Assembly: GCA_963705165.1 (NCBI GenBank)
Contig: CAVPJD010000025.1
Coordinates: 845 to 64,844, forward strand
Direction: 5' to 3'
Source: an uncultured delta proteobacterium
GTDB lineage: Bacteria > Desulfobacterota > Syntrophia > Syntrophales > UBA2192
DNA length: 64,000 nt
Shown here: piece by piece, positions 4,334 through 19,585 of the stretch
Position numbering within the stretch: the stretch's first letter is position 1
Layout of the letters: each line of letters starts with the position of its first letter
Made by a program: the position numbers and the translations under genes
Notes under the pieces: generated by a model
What the model saw: only the letters and a program-made list of their open reading frames with translations
The model's database searches: none
Told to the model about the DNA's origin: nothing

Positions 4334-4512
4334 AGCTGCCTCCTTTCTTCGGACGCAAACCGCCGGGCTGCCCTCCGGCAGCCCGACGGTCCACGAACCC
4401 ACATATGTTGATATACTTTTGGCCCCGGGCTGCGGACCTCCGGCGCAGAATAACCGAATCCCTCTCTCCCTCTGCGCCTTGAGCCTTTTGCCTTAAGCCT
4501 TATGCCTGCTTC

Positions 4513-14560: not shown

Positions 14561-14649
14561 GGGGTACAGGTTCGGGTCTCGGGTATCGGCGAAAGATAGA
14601 TTCCTGACCTTTCTTCCCTATACCCTATACCCTATACCCTGTTACCTAT
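14561..14649. repeat. opposed heptamer arrays (GGGNNNN / CCCTNNN)
   Basis: ggggtac aggttcg ggtctcg ggtatcg, a spacer, then cctttct tccctat accctat accctat accctgt tacctat. The right array overlaps the porB stop. Confidence 0.7.
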
Positions 14650-15551
14650 TTCGATTCCGCCGCCTTCCGCTTGTACTCCTCCCAGCGATCGTCCACCCAG
14701 TCCTGGAGCTGGCTGAGCTGCTCGATGCTCATTTTCTTGAACCGTCCCTGCTTCTCCACGTAGTGCACCACGGGGAGCTTGTTGCCCTTCTCGGCGAGCG
14801 TCTTGCTGCGGCCGGTGAAGCGGAACTTTCCGTTCTCCATCTCGAAGAGCACGCACAGGCCCGTGTCGACGGCAAGCCGGCCGATGCGGACCGTGTCCTT
14901 CGTGGGGTACTGCCACCCCGGGGGGCAGGGCGTGTGGATGTGGATGAACCGCGTGCCCTTGATCCGCTTGGCCCGCACGAACTTGTCGTAGAGATCGAGC
15001 GGGTAGGCCGGCGTCGTCGTGGCGATGTAGGCGATCTGATGGGCCTCCATGATCTTGAGGAAGTCCTTCTTGTGCTGCTGCTTCGTGAGGACGGGGGTCG
15101 TCGTCGTGAGGGCCCCCATGGGGGTTGCGCTCGATCGCTGGGTGCCCGTGTTCATGTAGCCCTCGTTGTCGTAGGCCACGTAGATGAAGTCCGTCCCGCG
15201 CTCGGCAGCGCCCGAGAGGGCCTGGATGCCCATGTCGAAGGTGCCCCCGTCGCCGGCGAAGGCCACGACGGTCGTGTCCGTCCGGTTCAGGGCGGCAAGC
15301 CCCGCCACGAGCCCCGAGGCCGAGGCGGCCGTGCTCGCGAAGGTGCAGTTCACGCTGGGCACCATGACCGGCGTCAGGGGGTAGAGCCCGTGAAGGACGC
15401 ACAGGCAGCAGGCGGGCAGCGTCACGATCGTGTTTTCCCTCAGCGCCTTCAGGGCGAAGCGGTAGGCGATGGAGAGCCCGCAGCCCTGGCAGGCCCGCGT
15501 GCCGGGAAGGATGTATTCTTTCTCGTGGATCTTGAAAAGATTCTGCGGCAT
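14646..15551 (-). CDS. porB: 2-oxoacid (pyruvate-type):ferredoxin oxidoreductase beta subunit (TPP-binding)
   Basis: 301 aa, MPQNLFKIHEKEYILPGTRACQGCG... and the GDGGTFDMG TPP motif. Last gene of a gamma-delta-alpha-beta operon. Confidence 0.85.
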   Translation of the reverse strand: MPQNLFKIHEKEYILPGTRACQGCGLSIAYRFALKALRENTIVTLPACCLCVLHGLYPLTPVMVPSVNCTFASTAASASGLVAGLAALNRTDTTVVAFAGDGGTFDMGIQALSGAAERGTDFIYVAYDNEGYMNTGTQRSSATPMGALTTTTPVLTKQQHKKDFLKIMEAHQIAYIATTTPAYPLDLYDKFVRAKRIKGTRFIHIHTPCPPGWQYPTKDTVRIGRLAVDTGLCVLFEMENGKFRFTGRSKTLAEKGNKLPVVHYVEKQGRFKKMSIEQLSQLQDWVDDRWEEYKRKAAESK

Positions 15552-15555
15552 AGCT

Positions 15556-16764
15556 CTACTCCGTCTGGCAGTTCAGCCAAGTGGTTACCAGCTCCCGTTC
15601 GCCGGCCTGGATCCGGGCAAGCGACGCCTTGACGGCCTCGACAAGCTCCCTTGCCTTCACGTCACGGCCGCCGAGGCCCGCCACGTGATCGTGGATGGCC
15701 GCATGGATGCCGCTTCCGTAGAAGGCGGCCTTGAGATCCGAGCACAGCCCCCCTTCGTAGCCGTAGCTGATGCTCTTTTCGAAGAGGATGATGGCCTTGG
15801 CATTGCGGTAGGCCTCGATGACGTCCTGTTTCGGGAAGGGCCGGAATACGCGGATCCCTACCACACCCGCCTTGATCCCCTCCTCGCGCAGGGCGTCGGC
15901 GGCCACCGTCGCCTCGGCGGCCAGCGACCCCATGCTCGTGAGGATGACATCGGCATCCTCCGTCCGGTACTTCCAGAGCATCCCGCCGTGGTCGCGCCCG
16001 AAGGCCTCCGCATACTGGCGGCTCACCTCGCGGATCGTCTCCGGGGTCCTGTCGAGGGCACTCTGCAGCTTGCAGCGCATCTCCATATAGCCGTCGCAGA
16101 GCACCCCTTCGCTGTTGGGACGCCTGTTGGGAAGCAGCACCGAGTTGATGGTCATCGGGTTTTCCGAATCGAGGATCGTGTGGGGTTTGTAGGGCGGGAG
16201 AAATTTCCTCACCGCCGCAGGAGTTGGGGAAACAACGGGCATCATCGTGTGGGAGAGCACGAAGCCGTCGTAGCAGACCATGACGGGCGCATAGACCGTC
16301 TCGGCGATCTTGTAGGCCTGGATCACCGTGTCGAGGATTTCCTGGTTGTCGCGGCAATAGATCTGGATCCAGCCCGTGTCGCGCTGGGCGAGCGAGTCCT
16401 GCTGGTCGTTGAAGATGGACCAGGGGGCCCCCACGCCGCGGTTGACGCAGCACATGACGATGGGGAGCCTCGATCCCGCCGCCCAGTGCAGCTGCTCGTG
16501 CATGTAGAGAAGCCCGTTTGCGCTGGTGGCCGTGAAGACCCGGGCGCCCACGGTAGAGGCCGAAATGCAGACCGTCATGGCCGAGTGCTCGCTTTCGACC
16601 CGCACGTACTCGGCGCGCAGCTGACCGCTTTCCACGTACAGGGAGAGCATCTCGGCAAGCTGCGACTGGGGGGTGATCGGGTAGGCGGCGATGACCTGGA
16701 CGTCGCAGAGCCTTGCCGCCAGCGCCGCAGCCTGGTTTCCGGTGATGATGCGCGCGTCAGTCAT
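15556..16764 (-). CDS. porA: 2-oxoacid:ferredoxin oxidoreductase alpha subunit
   Basis: 402 aa, MTDARIITGNQAAALAARLCDVQVIAAYPITPQS..., a typical PorA/VorA N-terminus. Confidence 0.85.
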   Translation of the reverse strand: MTDARIITGNQAAALAARLCDVQVIAAYPITPQSQLAEMLSLYVESGQLRAEYVRVESEHSAMTVCISASTVGARVFTATSANGLLYMHEQLHWAAGSRLPIVMCCVNRGVGAPWSIFNDQQDSLAQRDTGWIQIYCRDNQEILDTVIQAYKIAETVYAPVMVCYDGFVLSHTMMPVVSPTPAAVRKFLPPYKPHTILDSENPMTINSVLLPNRRPNSEGVLCDGYMEMRCKLQSALDRTPETIREVSRQYAEAFGRDHGGMLWKYRTEDADVILTSMGSLAAEATVAADALREEGIKAGVVGIRVFRPFPKQDVIEAYRNAKAIILFEKSISYGYEGGLCSDLKAAFYGSGIHAAIHDHVAGLGGRDVKARELVEAVKASLARIQAGERELVTTWLNCQTE

Positions 16765-17050
16765 TGCACTTGTCCTCCCTCACCATGCTGATGGCCCTCG
16801 ACGGGCACTCCTCGGCACAGATCCCGCAGCCCTTGCAGTAATCGAGGTCGATCTCGACGGGAATCCCCGCCTTGACAATCCCCTCGGGACAGTAGAGCCA
16901 GCACAGGTAGCAGGCGGCCTTCTTCTTGACGAAGGGCGTGCACTTGCTGTTGTCGATAATGGGCCGAAGGTCTCGCCAGTCGCCGGTCCTTCCCGCCTCG
17001 CCGACGGCGGGCTTGCACATGGCCGAGATGTTCTCGTCTTTTTTCTTCAT
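16757..17050 (-). CDS. porD: 2-oxoacid:ferredoxin oxidoreductase delta subunit (2x[4Fe-4S] ferredoxin)
   Basis: 97 aa with CxxCxxCxxCP-type motifs (CYLCWLYCP, CKGCGICAEECP). Overlaps the porA start by 8 nt. Confidence 0.85.
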   Translation of the reverse strand: MKKKDENISAMCKPAVGEAGRTGDWRDLRPIIDNSKCTPFVKKKAACYLCWLYCPEGIVKAGIPVEIDLDYCKGCGICAEECPSRAISMVREDKCND

Positions 17051-17091
17051 GATGGGTCCCTCTACCTCTTCGTGGTCGATTCTGACTTCAC

Positions 17092-17233
17092 GGCATAAGG
17101 CTTAAGGCTAAGGGCTTAAGGTAAAAGGAAGGAGATGACCCTCGTTCTATTCTGTTCTTCACCATAAGCCATAAGCCTTATGCCCTATGCCATTCCTTAC
17201 TCGCCTTTTGCCTTAAGCCCCAAGCCTTACGCC
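17092..17233. repeat. opposed heptamer arrays filling the porG-porD spacer
   Basis: ggcataa ggcttaa ggctaag ggcttaa ggtaaaa ggaagga (17092..17133), a 30-nt spacer, then ten NNNNGCC units ataagcc ataagcc ttatgcc ctatgcc ... ttaagcc ccaagcc ttacgcc (17164..17233). Confidence 0.75.
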
Positions 17234-17793
17234 TTTCTATTTATGATCGTTCCCTCGTAGGCCGCGCGCACCGTCTCGAAGTTCTGCGATGCCACCGCCG
17301 CGGGGAGCTTGCTGCGAAGGGCCTTCTCGATGTTCTCCAGGGAGACGATCCCTGTGGCCTTCGCGAAGGCGCCCAGCAGCGGTGTGTTGATCACGGGGGC
17401 GCCTTCCTTCGTGAGACGAAGCTTGAGGGCAACGCCGGTGGCATCAACGGTGGCCACATCGAAATCGCCGCTGATGCCCGCGTCTTCCGGCTTGCAGGCG
17501 GTATTGATGATGATCGTCCCGCCCTTTCGGACCCGCCCCTTCACGTCGACGACGCCGAGGAGCGTGTCGTCCAGGACAATGGCGATATCGGCCATCTCGA
17601 CCTGGGAAAACATCCGGATGGGGTCCTTCGAAATCCGCGTCGATGCCGTGACGGGCGCCCCGCGCCTCTCAGGGCCGAAGGTCGGCGCCGAGGTGACGCC
17701 CTTGAAGCCCTCCAGGTATGCCGACTCCGCCAGGATCTGGGCTGCAACCACGGCGCCCTGACCGCCACGACCGAACCAGATGACTTCTTTCAT
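17227..17793 (-). CDS. porG: 2-oxoacid:ferredoxin oxidoreductase gamma subunit
   Basis: ORF trimmed to ATG 17793 (GGGAGGAG upstream): MKEVIWFGRGGQGAVVAAQILAE..., a typical gamma subunit. Confidence 0.8.
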   Translation of the reverse strand: MKEVIWFGRGGQGAVVAAQILAESAYLEGFKGVTSAPTFGPERRGAPVTASTRISKDPIRMFSQVEMADIAIVLDDTLLGVVDVKGRVRKGGTIIINTACKPEDAGISGDFDVATVDATGVALKLRLTKEGAPVINTPLLGAFAKATGIVSLENIEKALRSKLPAAVASQNFETVRAAYEGTIINRKA

Positions 17794-17823
17794 CGCTCCT
17801 CCCGTTACGCCTGTTGCCAGAAG

Positions 17824-17862
17824 GCACAAAAAAAGGCCATGAGCTTTTTGCCCATGGCCTTT
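17824..17862 (-). terminator. strong intrinsic terminator 31 nt upstream of the porG start codon (attenuator or sRNA terminator)
   Basis: Minus strand reads AAAGGCCATGGGC-aaaaa-GCTCATGGCCTTT then TTTTGTG. That is a 13-bp stem (one G-U pair) with a 7-T run. Confidence 0.7.
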
Positions 17863-18022
17863 AGAATTTCGTCTTCGAGTCCCTAAATTCTAAAAACGAC
17901 GGGCGATCGGTATGCCAGTAGAAGCAGGAGCAGAGCGAGTCGCAACAACCCGTTCAGGTTCAAAAGCTCACTTCTTGCACCGATCGTCGTCATTCTCGGG
18001 GTAACCCTCACAAAGTAGAACT

Positions 18023-18051
18023 TAAATATCGGAAAGGATTCGGATTGTCAA
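18023..18051 (-). promoter_or_regulatory. candidate sigma70-type promoter driving the por leader RNA
   Basis: Minus strand reads TTGACA (18051..18046), a 17-nt spacer, then TATTTA (18028..18023). Confidence 0.5.
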
Positions 18052-18061
18052 TAACAAAATA

Positions 18062-18285
18062 GGCATCAGGCATCAGGCGTCAGGAAAGGAAAAGCACTCT
18101 GCTTTCCGATGCCGGGAGGCCTCCTGCGCCGAACCCGTCGAGTTCAGGACAGGCATCGCGTACCCGTTGTTTATGCAAGCATCAGGCCTGTTCGGGATGA
18201 ACGATACCCGGCAGAAGGCCGACAGTTCACCTTTCGGGGCCGTCTTGCCTTTTGCCTGATGCCTTTTGCCTGATGCCCAGTGCCC
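18062..18285. repeat. opposed heptamer arrays about 160 nt apart (GGCATCA / TGATGCC)
   Basis: ggcatca ggcatca ggcgtca gg (18062..18084) and cttgccttttgcctgatgccttttgcctgatgcccagtgcc (18244..18285). The latter encodes the waaA C-terminal tail. Confidence 0.65.
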
Positions 18286-19585
18286 GGACGATCATCCCCG
18301 CATAGCGCTCTGCGGCGCCGCGGCTCGCCAGGACGCGCTTCTGGCCTTCCATTCCTCGGCGCCTGAGCTCTGCGGGATCGCAGAGCATCGCTTTCATGCC
18401 CGCAAGGAGTTCCTCGGCGTTTCGGACCGGGATGCCCGCGCCGGCCTCTTCCAGGAGGGCCTTCTCGTCGAGGAAGTCCTCCATGGATGGCCCGTAAAAG
18501 ACGACCTTCCCCCAGGCGGCCGGTTCCAGGATATTCTGCCCTCCCTTTGCCACAAGGCTTCCCCCGCAATAGACGACGGTGGCCAGGCTGTACAGACCGA
18601 ACAACTCGCCGATCACATCGACGACGACGACGCCCCGGTCGGGCGGCCCCCCCTCAAGGATCTCGCTCATTAGGACACCGGTAAGCCCCTGGGCCGCCAC
18701 CAGGTCGCGCACGGCCTTTCCCCTCTCGGGGTGACGGGGCACGATGATGAGCCGCAAATCGGGCCACTCCTGCAGCAGCGCCCGGTACACCTCGAGGACA
18801 ATGGCCTCCTCCCCTTCGTGCGTGCTGCCCGCCACGAACACCCGGGTGTCCGGCGTCATCTTCATCTGGGCGGCTTTCCGGGACCAGACCTCGCCGCTCA
18901 CCCTCGAGGCGAGGCTGTCGTACTTGGCGTTCCCCATGACCTTCACGTTCGCCGCGGGAGCGCCAATGGCCAGGATGCGTTCCCTGTCCACCGCGGAGAT
19001 CACCCCGATTTCGAGGACTGACGCCAGGACTTTTTTCCAGAAGAACGCCGTCCGTGAGTAACGACGGAACGACCGGGGTGAAATCCGGCCGTTCACCATG
19101 ACGGCGGGGATGCGGCGCTTCATGCAGTGCCGGAGAAAGTTGGGCCAGAGCTCCGTTTCCGTCAGGACGACGATATCGGGGGCGATCCGGTCGATCACTT
19201 TTTTCACGACCGGAAAGAGGTCGAGGGGAAAATACATGAATGCCGTGGCCTGGGGGATCAACTTGCGCGCCATGGCCTGGCCCGTCTCCGTGCCGGTGGA
19301 AAGGACGATACTGGCCTGGGGGAGCTTCCCCCACAGGGCGGCAACGATGGGGGCCGCCGCCGTGACCTCGCCCACGGAGACGGCATGGACCCAGATCCGC
19401 GGATGGCCCTTGAGAGCGGAAATCGTTTCGTCGGGTATGTCCCCCAGCTTCTGCCAGATGCTCTGACGGTACTTTCCCGCCACAAGGATCTTGAATGCGT
19501 AATACGGCGCCAGGAGCAGGAAGCCCAAGAGAGCGGTGATGTTGTAAAGTACGTGAAGCACCGCCCGACGATAATGCGGTTTCAA
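18227..19585 (-). CDS. waaA: 3-deoxy-D-manno-octulosonic acid (Kdo) transferase
   Basis: 452 aa. N-terminal membrane anchor, then RIWVHAVSVGEVTAAAPIV and a GSTHEGEE-type motif. The last ~15 residues are translated heptamer repeats. Confidence 0.85.
   Translation of the reverse strand: MKPHYRRAVLHVLYNITALLGFLLLAPYYAFKILVAGKYRQSIWQKLGDIPDETISALKGHPRIWVHAVSVGEVTAAAPIVAALWGKLPQASIVLSTGTETGQAMARKLIPQATAFMYFPLDLFPVVKKVIDRIAPDIVVLTETELWPNFLRHCMKRRIPAVMVNGRISPRSFRRYSRTAFFWKKVLASVLEIGVISAVDRERILAIGAPAANVKVMGNAKYDSLASRVSGEVWSRKAAQMKMTPDTRVFVAGSTHEGEEAIVLEVYRALLQEWPDLRLIIVPRHPERGKAVRDLVAAQGLTGVLMSEILEGGPPDRGVVVVDVIGELFGLYSLATVVYCGGSLVAKGGQNILEPAAWGKVVFYGPSMEDFLDEKALLEEAGAGIPVRNAEELLAGMKAMLCDPAELRRRGMEGQKRVLASRGAAERYAGMIVRALGIRQKASGKRQDGPER

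Follow-up and report, generated by a model that had tools for sequence, protein, structure and literature searches.

In the leuL attenuator of the enterobacterial leuABCD operon (Leu_leader, RF00512), as in the trpL, hisL and pheL class generally, the position of the ribosome on the leader transcript acts as the sensor. Here we describe an element with the anatomy of such an attenuator in an uncultured bacterium of the order Syntrophales, on the minus strand of a 64,000-nucleotide stretch of contig CAVPJD010000025.1 (the window, taken from a metagenome-assembled genome of 2.7 Mb and 84% completeness), where it stands directly ahead of an operon for a 2-oxoacid:ferredoxin oxidoreductase. We interpret this element as very probably a transcription attenuator of the leader-peptide (ribosome-mediated) kind, responsive to leucine and controlling the oxidoreductase operon. 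The mechanism is a textbook one; the RNA family is absent from Rfam 15, and the target is both unusual and informative.

Like leuL, the element combines a short open reading frame (ORF) bearing a run of Leu codons with an intrinsic terminator ahead of the structural genes; antiterminator and terminator have one strand in common, and leuA is the target of a paralogous copy. Unlike leuL, the Syntrophales leader is longer and distributes its 12 Leu codons over a stretch of 17; the control codons sit between segments 1 and 2 of the folded RNA, segment 1 itself containing the leader AUG; and the target of this copy is a ferredoxin-dependent 2-oxoacid oxidoreductase, not a leu gene. RF00512 gave no match, either at the gathering threshold across the whole window or at E values up to 10 across positions 17700-18300.

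Three other leucine-responsive systems invite comparison. A Leu-rich attenuator peptide governs branched-chain amino acid biosynthesis at the ilv-leu operon of Staphylococcus aureus; attenuation by such a peptide is common to both systems, whereas the S. aureus leader belongs to another phylum, is unrelated in sequence, acts alongside CodY and serves the canonical ilv/leu targets (PMC5794164). Geobacter, also of the former Deltaproteobacteria, carries a Leu T-box upstream of leuA, with uncharged tRNA-Leu as its signal and antitermination as its output (PMC2700814). The T-box, however, is untranslated and reads the tRNA directly, whereas the Syntrophales element, for which we rejected a T-box because the Rfam scans gave no RF00230 match, is predicted to use a translated leader. 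In actinobacteria, a LEU element and leader ORFs precede leuA and ilvB (PMC1262725), so that upstream ORFs with Leu runs and alternative RNA structures before leuA are found there too. The LEU element is nevertheless a pseudoknot in which the Leu codons pair with the Shine–Dalgarno sequence of leuA, often without a terminator (PMC1262725), whereas the present leader has a canonical terminator and antiterminator and leaves the Shine–Dalgarno sequence of the structural gene free. Our literature searches returned no description of this attenuator family in Syntrophales or Deltaproteobacteria.

A leucine-rich reading frame within three competing helices

The leader RNA between the promoter and the end of the terminator measures about 190 nt (features in Table 1). 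A 201-nt stretch folds with a z-score of -3.9 relative to dinucleotide shuffles, 0 of 200 of which fold as well. An earlier note on this DNA had described the region as structured RNA with a long-range helix continued by an inner one; folding confirmed that description, which had overlooked a 36-codon Leu-rich ORF inside the structure. This ORF ends in a stop codon at 17885-17883, and six of its Leu codons (21-26) are consecutive, occupying positions 17933-17916.

Three pairings that exclude one another, 1:2, 2:3 and 3:4, follow in a chain along the RNA, and the Leu-rich ORF runs through them. In the first, the long helix P1, GAGAAUGACG (17997-17988) pairs with CGUCGUUUUU (17901-17892) and CGAUCGGUGCA with GCAUACCGAUCG, as confirmed by folding. 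The second, the antiterminator, joins 17904-17885 to 17869-17850, with 19 of its 20 positions paired, one C-C mismatch and a folding free energy (dG) of -21.6 kcal/mol. The third is the terminator at 17862-17832, which has 13 pairs (7 of them G-C), a loop of 5 and likewise a dG of -21.6 kcal/mol. Each helix shares a strand with the next: 17904-17892 belongs both to the base of P1 and to the antiterminator, while antiterminator and terminator have 13 nt in common, the last 13 nt of segment 3 (17862-17850) being the 5' arm of the terminator. The 13-bp terminator with its 7-U tail, which we place at 17862-17828, had been recognised from the outset. A hairpin TAGAATTT...AAATTCTA reported beside it also exists, although it is only the apical tip of the 20-position antiterminator that links the rod and the terminator.

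Table 1. Features of the leader and of the operon that follows it, in window coordinates
Feature	Position	Strand	Basis
-35 box TTGACA	18051-18046	minus	Read from sequence; invariant across relatives
Putative -10 box TATTTA	18028-18023	minus	Weak, 3/6 matches to TATAAT; 17-nt spacer
Segment 1, 5' strand of long helix P1, includes leader AUG	17997-17966	minus	Folding
Leader peptide ORF, 36 codons + TAG, MTTIGARSELLNLNGLLRLALLLLLLAYRSPVVFRI	ATG 17993 to TAG 17883	minus	Sequence read
Control codons, 12 Leu (codons 10, 11, 13, 16, 17, 19, 21-26)	17966-17916	minus	Sequence read
Segment 2, 3' strand of P1 base (17916-17892), overlapping antiterminator 5' arm GCCCGUCGUUUUUAGAAUUU (17904-17885)	17916-17885	minus	Folding and conservation
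Segment 3, antiterminator 3' arm AAAUUCUAAAGGCCAUGGGC	17869-17850	minus	Folding and pairing in relatives
Terminator loop	17849-17845	minus	Folding
Segment 4, terminator 3' arm GCUCAUGGCCUUU	17844-17832	minus	Folding
U7 tract	17834-17828	minus	Terminator scan, sequence read
Oxidoreductase gamma subunit	17793-17227	minus	Pfam, NCBIfam
Oxidoreductase delta subunit	17050-16757	minus	Pfam, NCBIfam
Oxidoreductase alpha subunit	16764-15556	minus	Pfam, NCBIfam
Oxidoreductase beta subunit	15551-14646	minus	Pfam, NCBIfam

Occurrence and conservation in Syntrophales

A total of 105 distinct copies of the element were gathered with BLAST and a single pattern scan of the genome collection. Every copy that could be classified lies directly upstream of, and co-oriented with, either an oxidoreductase gamma subunit (target motif M.E.IW[HF]GRGGQG) or leuA (a protein of about 515 aa with IFDTTLRDGEQ). 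With a covariance model of its 3' half, the element was detected in 141 of 151 genomes sampled from Syntrophales and in all 62 genera sampled, which adds an order-wide RNA family beyond those of Rfam 15. The genome studied here itself holds a second Leu leader, MGLIMTGKNGTNELLTLLGLALLGLSSHNRRPSGLGSP, with the same terminator and directly upstream of leuA (G000:C14:66331-66460; L156/L003); this leuA scores 763.6 and 708.3 bits to the LeuA equivalogs, above the cut-offs.

An ATG-started ORF is open in the Leu frame of 101 of the 105 distinct relatives, the other four having no ATG start under simple criteria. Openness is a weak coding test, as the pyrimidine-rich tract leaves the +2 frame open too in 62 of the 101 copies; coding was judged instead by Leu content and by the frame-shifted C-termini. 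Among the 101 leaders, the Leu frame has a mean Leu content of 30%, against 4-5% in the other two frames, and the best 10-codon window holds 6-8 Leu in 94 of them, clustered 18-72 nt upstream of segment 2. The conserved GCCCGUCGUUUUUAGG is read in three frames, which differ between lineages, ending the peptide as ..SPVVFRx* (56 leaders), ..RRPSFLGNP* (32, all the leuA copies) or ..ARRF* (13). This three-frame reading fits an RNA constraint acting on segment 2 and a codon constraint acting on the Leu run.

Conservation and covariation of the helices in related genomes, on which the earlier note had made its reading depend, are both observed. In an alignment of 103 copies, themselves related to one another, pairing of the antiterminator holds in 97.5% of cells and drops to 41-65% in slid registers, and three of its pairs show compensatory changes (G-C/A-U, G-C/A-U and A-U/U-A), all of them outside the letters fixed by the search pattern. 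The terminator is paired in 96% of cells across relatives, and the P1 base, which includes the leader AUG, in 83% across 103 relatives, against 33-51% in its slid controls; over all helices, the slid-register controls were 18-66% paired. In most other genera, segment 2 is directly preceded by a local hairpin (GAUGGG...CCCAUC or ACGCG...CGCGU, for instance) whose five pairs all covary; this genus has the long-range pairing with the start of the ORF in its place.

One expression platform, several sets of control codons

Weaker full-length matches of the covariance model occur elsewhere in the phylum and in the same genome. These keep the platform, GCCC[GA]UCG ... GCCAUGGG ... CCCAUGGC-U-tract, and differ in their control codons. 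In the same genome, a MERLKLRNFGFWFSTYYFYGQVCPSLRRT leader precedes a 3-deoxy-D-arabino-heptulosonate 7-phosphate (DAHP) synthase (G000:C24:40333-40462; L157); this leader is aromatic-rich (..NFGFWFSTYYFYGQVCPSLRRT), and a second terminator-like hairpin follows the first. Another DAHP synthase is preceded by a FNFNFWFYFYYYY leader, and RYYCFYYYD stands before a 2-amino-3,7-dideoxy-D-threo-hept-6-ulosonate (ADH) synthase; FGFWFSTYYFY exemplifies the aromatic-rich leaders that precede DAHP synthase or ADH synthase. In other genomes of the phylum and order, leaders with 4-8 Lys (L171, L173, L186, L190, L192 and L206) precede dapA, which encodes 4-hydroxy-tetrahydrodipicolinate synthase, the Lys enrichment being clear in some of them (KIKVDKKRKVKKRG) and modest in others. 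One representative of each target type (two in the case of the DAHP synthases) passed the NCBIfam cut-off.

That the control codons follow the pathway encoded downstream is the strongest functional argument that the sequences offer. Ribosome-mediated attenuation predicts just such a pattern, which would be hard to explain otherwise. The reuse of one expression platform for leucine, aromatic and lysine pathways also makes this family a useful case for the evolution of attenuators.

Proposed mechanism and alternative explanations

At the sequence level the leader has what a ribosome-mediated attenuator calls for, namely a leader ORF (whose translation is predicted), a Leu cluster, an intrinsic terminator, an exclusive antiterminator with an upstream pairing, and suitable spacing of codons and stop. 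Attenuator, riboswitch and independent small RNA (sRNA) had all been offered initially; the attenuator option was the right one, with the signal most probably sensed by the ribosome through the Leu-rich leader and not by binding of a ligand. What the sequences show is an ORF with its Leu codons, three helices that compete and are conserved, and the genes next to them; from this we infer the ribosome positions and the read-through as follows.

A ribosome would translate the 36-codon leader while RNA polymerase moves on. Segment 2 (GCCCGUCGUUUUUAG...) could pair back with segment 1 around the leader AUG, forming P1, or forward with segment 3 (AAAGGCCAUGGGC), whose alternative partner would be segment 4 in the terminator. 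When charged tRNA-Leu is plentiful, the ribosome would reach the stop codon and sit on segment 2; with segment 2 covered, segments 3 and 4 would form the terminator and transcription would end at the U7 tract. With charged tRNA-Leu in short supply, the ribosome would instead stall in the Leu codons, its footprint ending just before segment 2, and, having already melted the upper part of P1, would allow segment 2 to pair with the nascent segment 3. The antiterminator thus formed would preclude the terminator, and the operon would be transcribed. Between the last Leu codon and CGUUUUUAG there are 11-30 nt (14-30 nt in every leader except one), and a ribosome stalled at that codon or earlier would leave segment 2 free. 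Stop codons fall 6-22 nt past the start of CGUUUUUAG, nearly all of them at 6-17 nt, where a terminating ribosome would cover segment 2. On assumed ribosome footprints, these distances fit classical attenuation in every lineage.

Several observations weigh against this mechanism. A Shine–Dalgarno-like GAGG stands about 12 nt from the leader AUG, which is a long spacing, and the AUG itself is paired within P1. The control codons fall between segments 1 and 2, not inside segment 1 as in trpL, and Leu-rich peptides also look like membrane helices. Most members of the family were fetched by sequence pattern, and the invariance of CGTTTTTAG and AAGGCCATGGG among those is by construction. When ribosome footprints were masked in equilibrium folding, one run of the full-length RNA gave the antiterminator only when the ribosome was placed on the last Leu codon (Leu26), and a repeat of this Leu26 fold retained the terminator; a transcript cut off directly behind segment 3, moreover, forms the antiterminator at equilibrium even without a ribosome. 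Since the equilibrium folds give no clean switch, the decision must be kinetic, as it is in known attenuators. Thermodynamics alone cannot prove a switch, and we limit our claim from these calculations to the near-equal predicted stability of antiterminator and terminator.

Some of these points, namely an AUG sequestered in P1, poor Shine–Dalgarno spacing and equilibrium folds without a clean switch, could also be taken to mean that an attenuator-like anatomy acts in a non-classical way, through translation-coupled RNA stability, through Rho, or by constitutive partial termination without leucine sensing. There is a precedent in Streptomyces coelicolor, where look-alike ilvB and leuA leaders were mutated and did not behave as classical attenuators (PMC1262725). 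We nevertheless consider such an action very unlikely here, as every part of a classical attenuator is there, in the right place and conserved in over 100 copies, and the intrinsic terminator is strong.

A translation-independent riboregulator, be it a metabolite riboswitch, a protein-binding leader or a trans-acting sRNA of about 190 nt, appears very unlikely. The RNA is indeed structured, its mutually exclusive terminator and antiterminator resemble the expression platforms of riboswitches, and its terminated product would be a discrete RNA. However, the scan with Rfam covariance models that the earlier note had proposed as a check for known classes returned no relevant family of Rfam 15, either at the gathering threshold for the whole window or at E values up to 10 for 17700-18300, and the weak matches to DapZ and sot2652 reflect only the terminator. 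Upstream of the expression platform, where the sensor would have to lie, no aptamer-type Rfam match was obtained; that region is the most variable part of the element, and what is conserved in it is an open Leu-rich frame, not a structure. A riboregulator would also leave it hard to see why the identity of the control codons tracks the downstream pathway, and the element was never found away from a co-oriented target gene. 6S RNA, which the rod shape had suggested, was rejected on similar grounds, with no Rfam match and an element that is always gene-linked.

Least likely of all is that the ORF is the gene of a functional small membrane protein, expressed from a promoter of its own and ended by its own terminator, the helices being incidental or mRNA-stabilising. 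A basic N-terminus followed by a Leu-rich hydrophobic stretch does resemble a single membrane helix, and the element is conserved across an order and has a strong terminator of its own. A conserved small protein is nevertheless unlikely because GCCCGUCGUUUUUAGG is read in three frames, giving unrelated C-termini, while the Leu codons stay in frame. In paralogous copies, aromatic or Lys codons take the place of the Leu run in keeping with the pathway encoded downstream; pairing of the antiterminator is conserved; and the element always directly precedes leuA or the oxidoreductase, in the same orientation.

The oxidoreductase operon and its possible role in leucine supply

A Leu-codon attenuator, as we very probably have here, implies that the cell wants the oxidoreductase when leucine is short. 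The operon (14646-17793, minus strand) encodes a four-subunit POR/VOR-family 2-oxoacid:ferredoxin oxidoreductase with the Pfam domains POR, POR_N, PFOR_II and TPP_enzyme_C across its subunits. It shares the gamma-delta-alpha-beta architecture of the VOR and four-subunit POR enzymes of anaerobes and archaea (TIGR02175/TIGR02179) and passes these subfamily models, TIGR02175 with a score of 177.8 (cut-off 81.1) and TIGR02179 with 90 (cut-off 60). Unlike the POR and VOR equivalogs, however, it misses every equivalog cut-off, the best score of the beta subunit being 370.5 against 405 for VOR beta and that of the alpha subunit 430 against 550 for PorA. A 176-nt spacer (17051-17226) separates the gamma and delta genes; the other subunit genes abut or overlap.

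The POR_N domain occurs at six loci of this genome (C31, C30 with two loci, C17, C25 and C26), and among the POR_N loci examined the Leu leader is found only at the oxidoreductase of this window. The genome holds at least six such oxidoreductases, which annotation cannot tell apart, and the control signal would mark one of them as anabolic and leucine-linked. Because the Leu leader is common to the oxidoreductase and to leuA, the operon appears tied to leucine supply. It had been taken for a central-metabolism operon; an oxidoreductase operon does lie downstream of the leader, but it is probably not one of general central metabolism.

The distribution of leuA bears on this role. A LeuA match above the cut-off was found in only 87 of the 151 genomes of the order, and its presence varies even within this genus; this patchy pattern concerns G001, G004, G006, G009, G016, G017, G019-G021, G030, G039 and others. 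The remaining genomes have only a lower-scoring match of about 250 bits to LeuA, and the one that was checked (in G016) is a citramalate synthase, with 721.5 bits to TIGR00977. Five leuA-less genomes that are 98-100% complete hold exactly one strong leader match each, and in 5/5 it stands before the oxidoreductase. A probable leucine-starvation switch kept in leuA-less cells, for which the isopropylmalate route to leucine is closed, points to a source of leucine precursor that is independent of leuA, and leucine-specific control together with retention in leuA-less genomes suggests an anabolic, leucine-directed role for the enzyme.

Rumen anaerobes have been known since the 1960s to make branched-chain amino acids from branched short-chain acids by reductive carboxylation. 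The genes for it are poorly assigned, and the present operon offers a candidate set. The enzyme may well serve leucine supply, in which case its likeliest reaction would be the reductive carboxylation of a branched acyl-CoA, converting isovaleryl-CoA to 2-oxoisocaproate or isobutyryl-CoA to 2-oxoisovalerate. As the precursor source in leuA-less cells, the isovaleryl-CoA to 2-oxoisocaproate reaction is the likeliest that we can name, although we rate it as hardly an even call. A broader proposal, possible but somewhat short of probable in our view, is that the oxidoreductase is a dedicated 2-oxoisocaproate/2-oxoisovalerate synthase, which would provide leuA-independent leucine from isovalerate or isobutyrate via ferredoxin, and that its control element is a modular attenuator cassette whose platform was duplicated and re-coded (Leu, aromatic, Lys) across the phylum. 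If true, a dedicated synthase would explain why the switch is kept in lineages that lost leuA.

Promoter, flanking gene and heptamer arrays

The sigma70-like promoter that the earlier note had placed ahead of the leader (TTGACA, 17 nt, TATTTA) is present as described; it was not called by a consensus scan, the -10 box being weak, though the -35 box is invariant in relatives, which have TATnnn at the same spacing from it. In a same-genus comparison, in which 16 of the 17 genomes searched hold the element, DNA conservation sets in at about 18059-18051, at or just upstream of the -35 box. Judging from its position and the conserved -35 box, we keep the promoter as plausible, with a predicted transcription start near 18016, about 7 nt past the -10 box.

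The upstream neighbour is waaA (Kdo transferase, by Pfam), whose stop codon at 18229-18227 lies about 365 nt upstream of the terminator, close to the 360 nt first estimated. With conservation starting only at about the -35 box, we rejected the reading of the terminator as that of waaA, in agreement with the original view that it is not simply the waaA terminator. On the other side, the gap to the operon is short, as had been stated; the ATG of the first oxidoreductase gene, at 17793, follows the last U of the terminator by 34 nt.

Tandem arrays of a 7-nt unit (GCCTGAT-like) flank the locus at 18061-18084 and 18245-18284, and further heptamer arrays occur at 4476, 9107, 9421, 13668, 14616, 19663, 19707, 22993, 23653, 25237, 37196, 47755 and 48259, apparently mostly between genes. 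Just upstream of the -35 box the array reads GCCTGATGCCTGATGCC, the reverse complement of GGCATCAGGCAAAAGGCATCAGGC, which forms the array at the 3' end of waaA; the two lie on either side of a 160-nt spacer and could pair. In relatives, (AGCCTGT)n arrays directly precede the TTGACA box, a stretch that recurs many times in related genomes. The last 20 or so codons of the Kdo transferase ORF (..GHQAKGIRQKARRPRKV; window 18227-18290) are encoded by a heptamer array, and they probably reflect a frame running on into repeat DNA and not a portion of the enzyme that is conserved.

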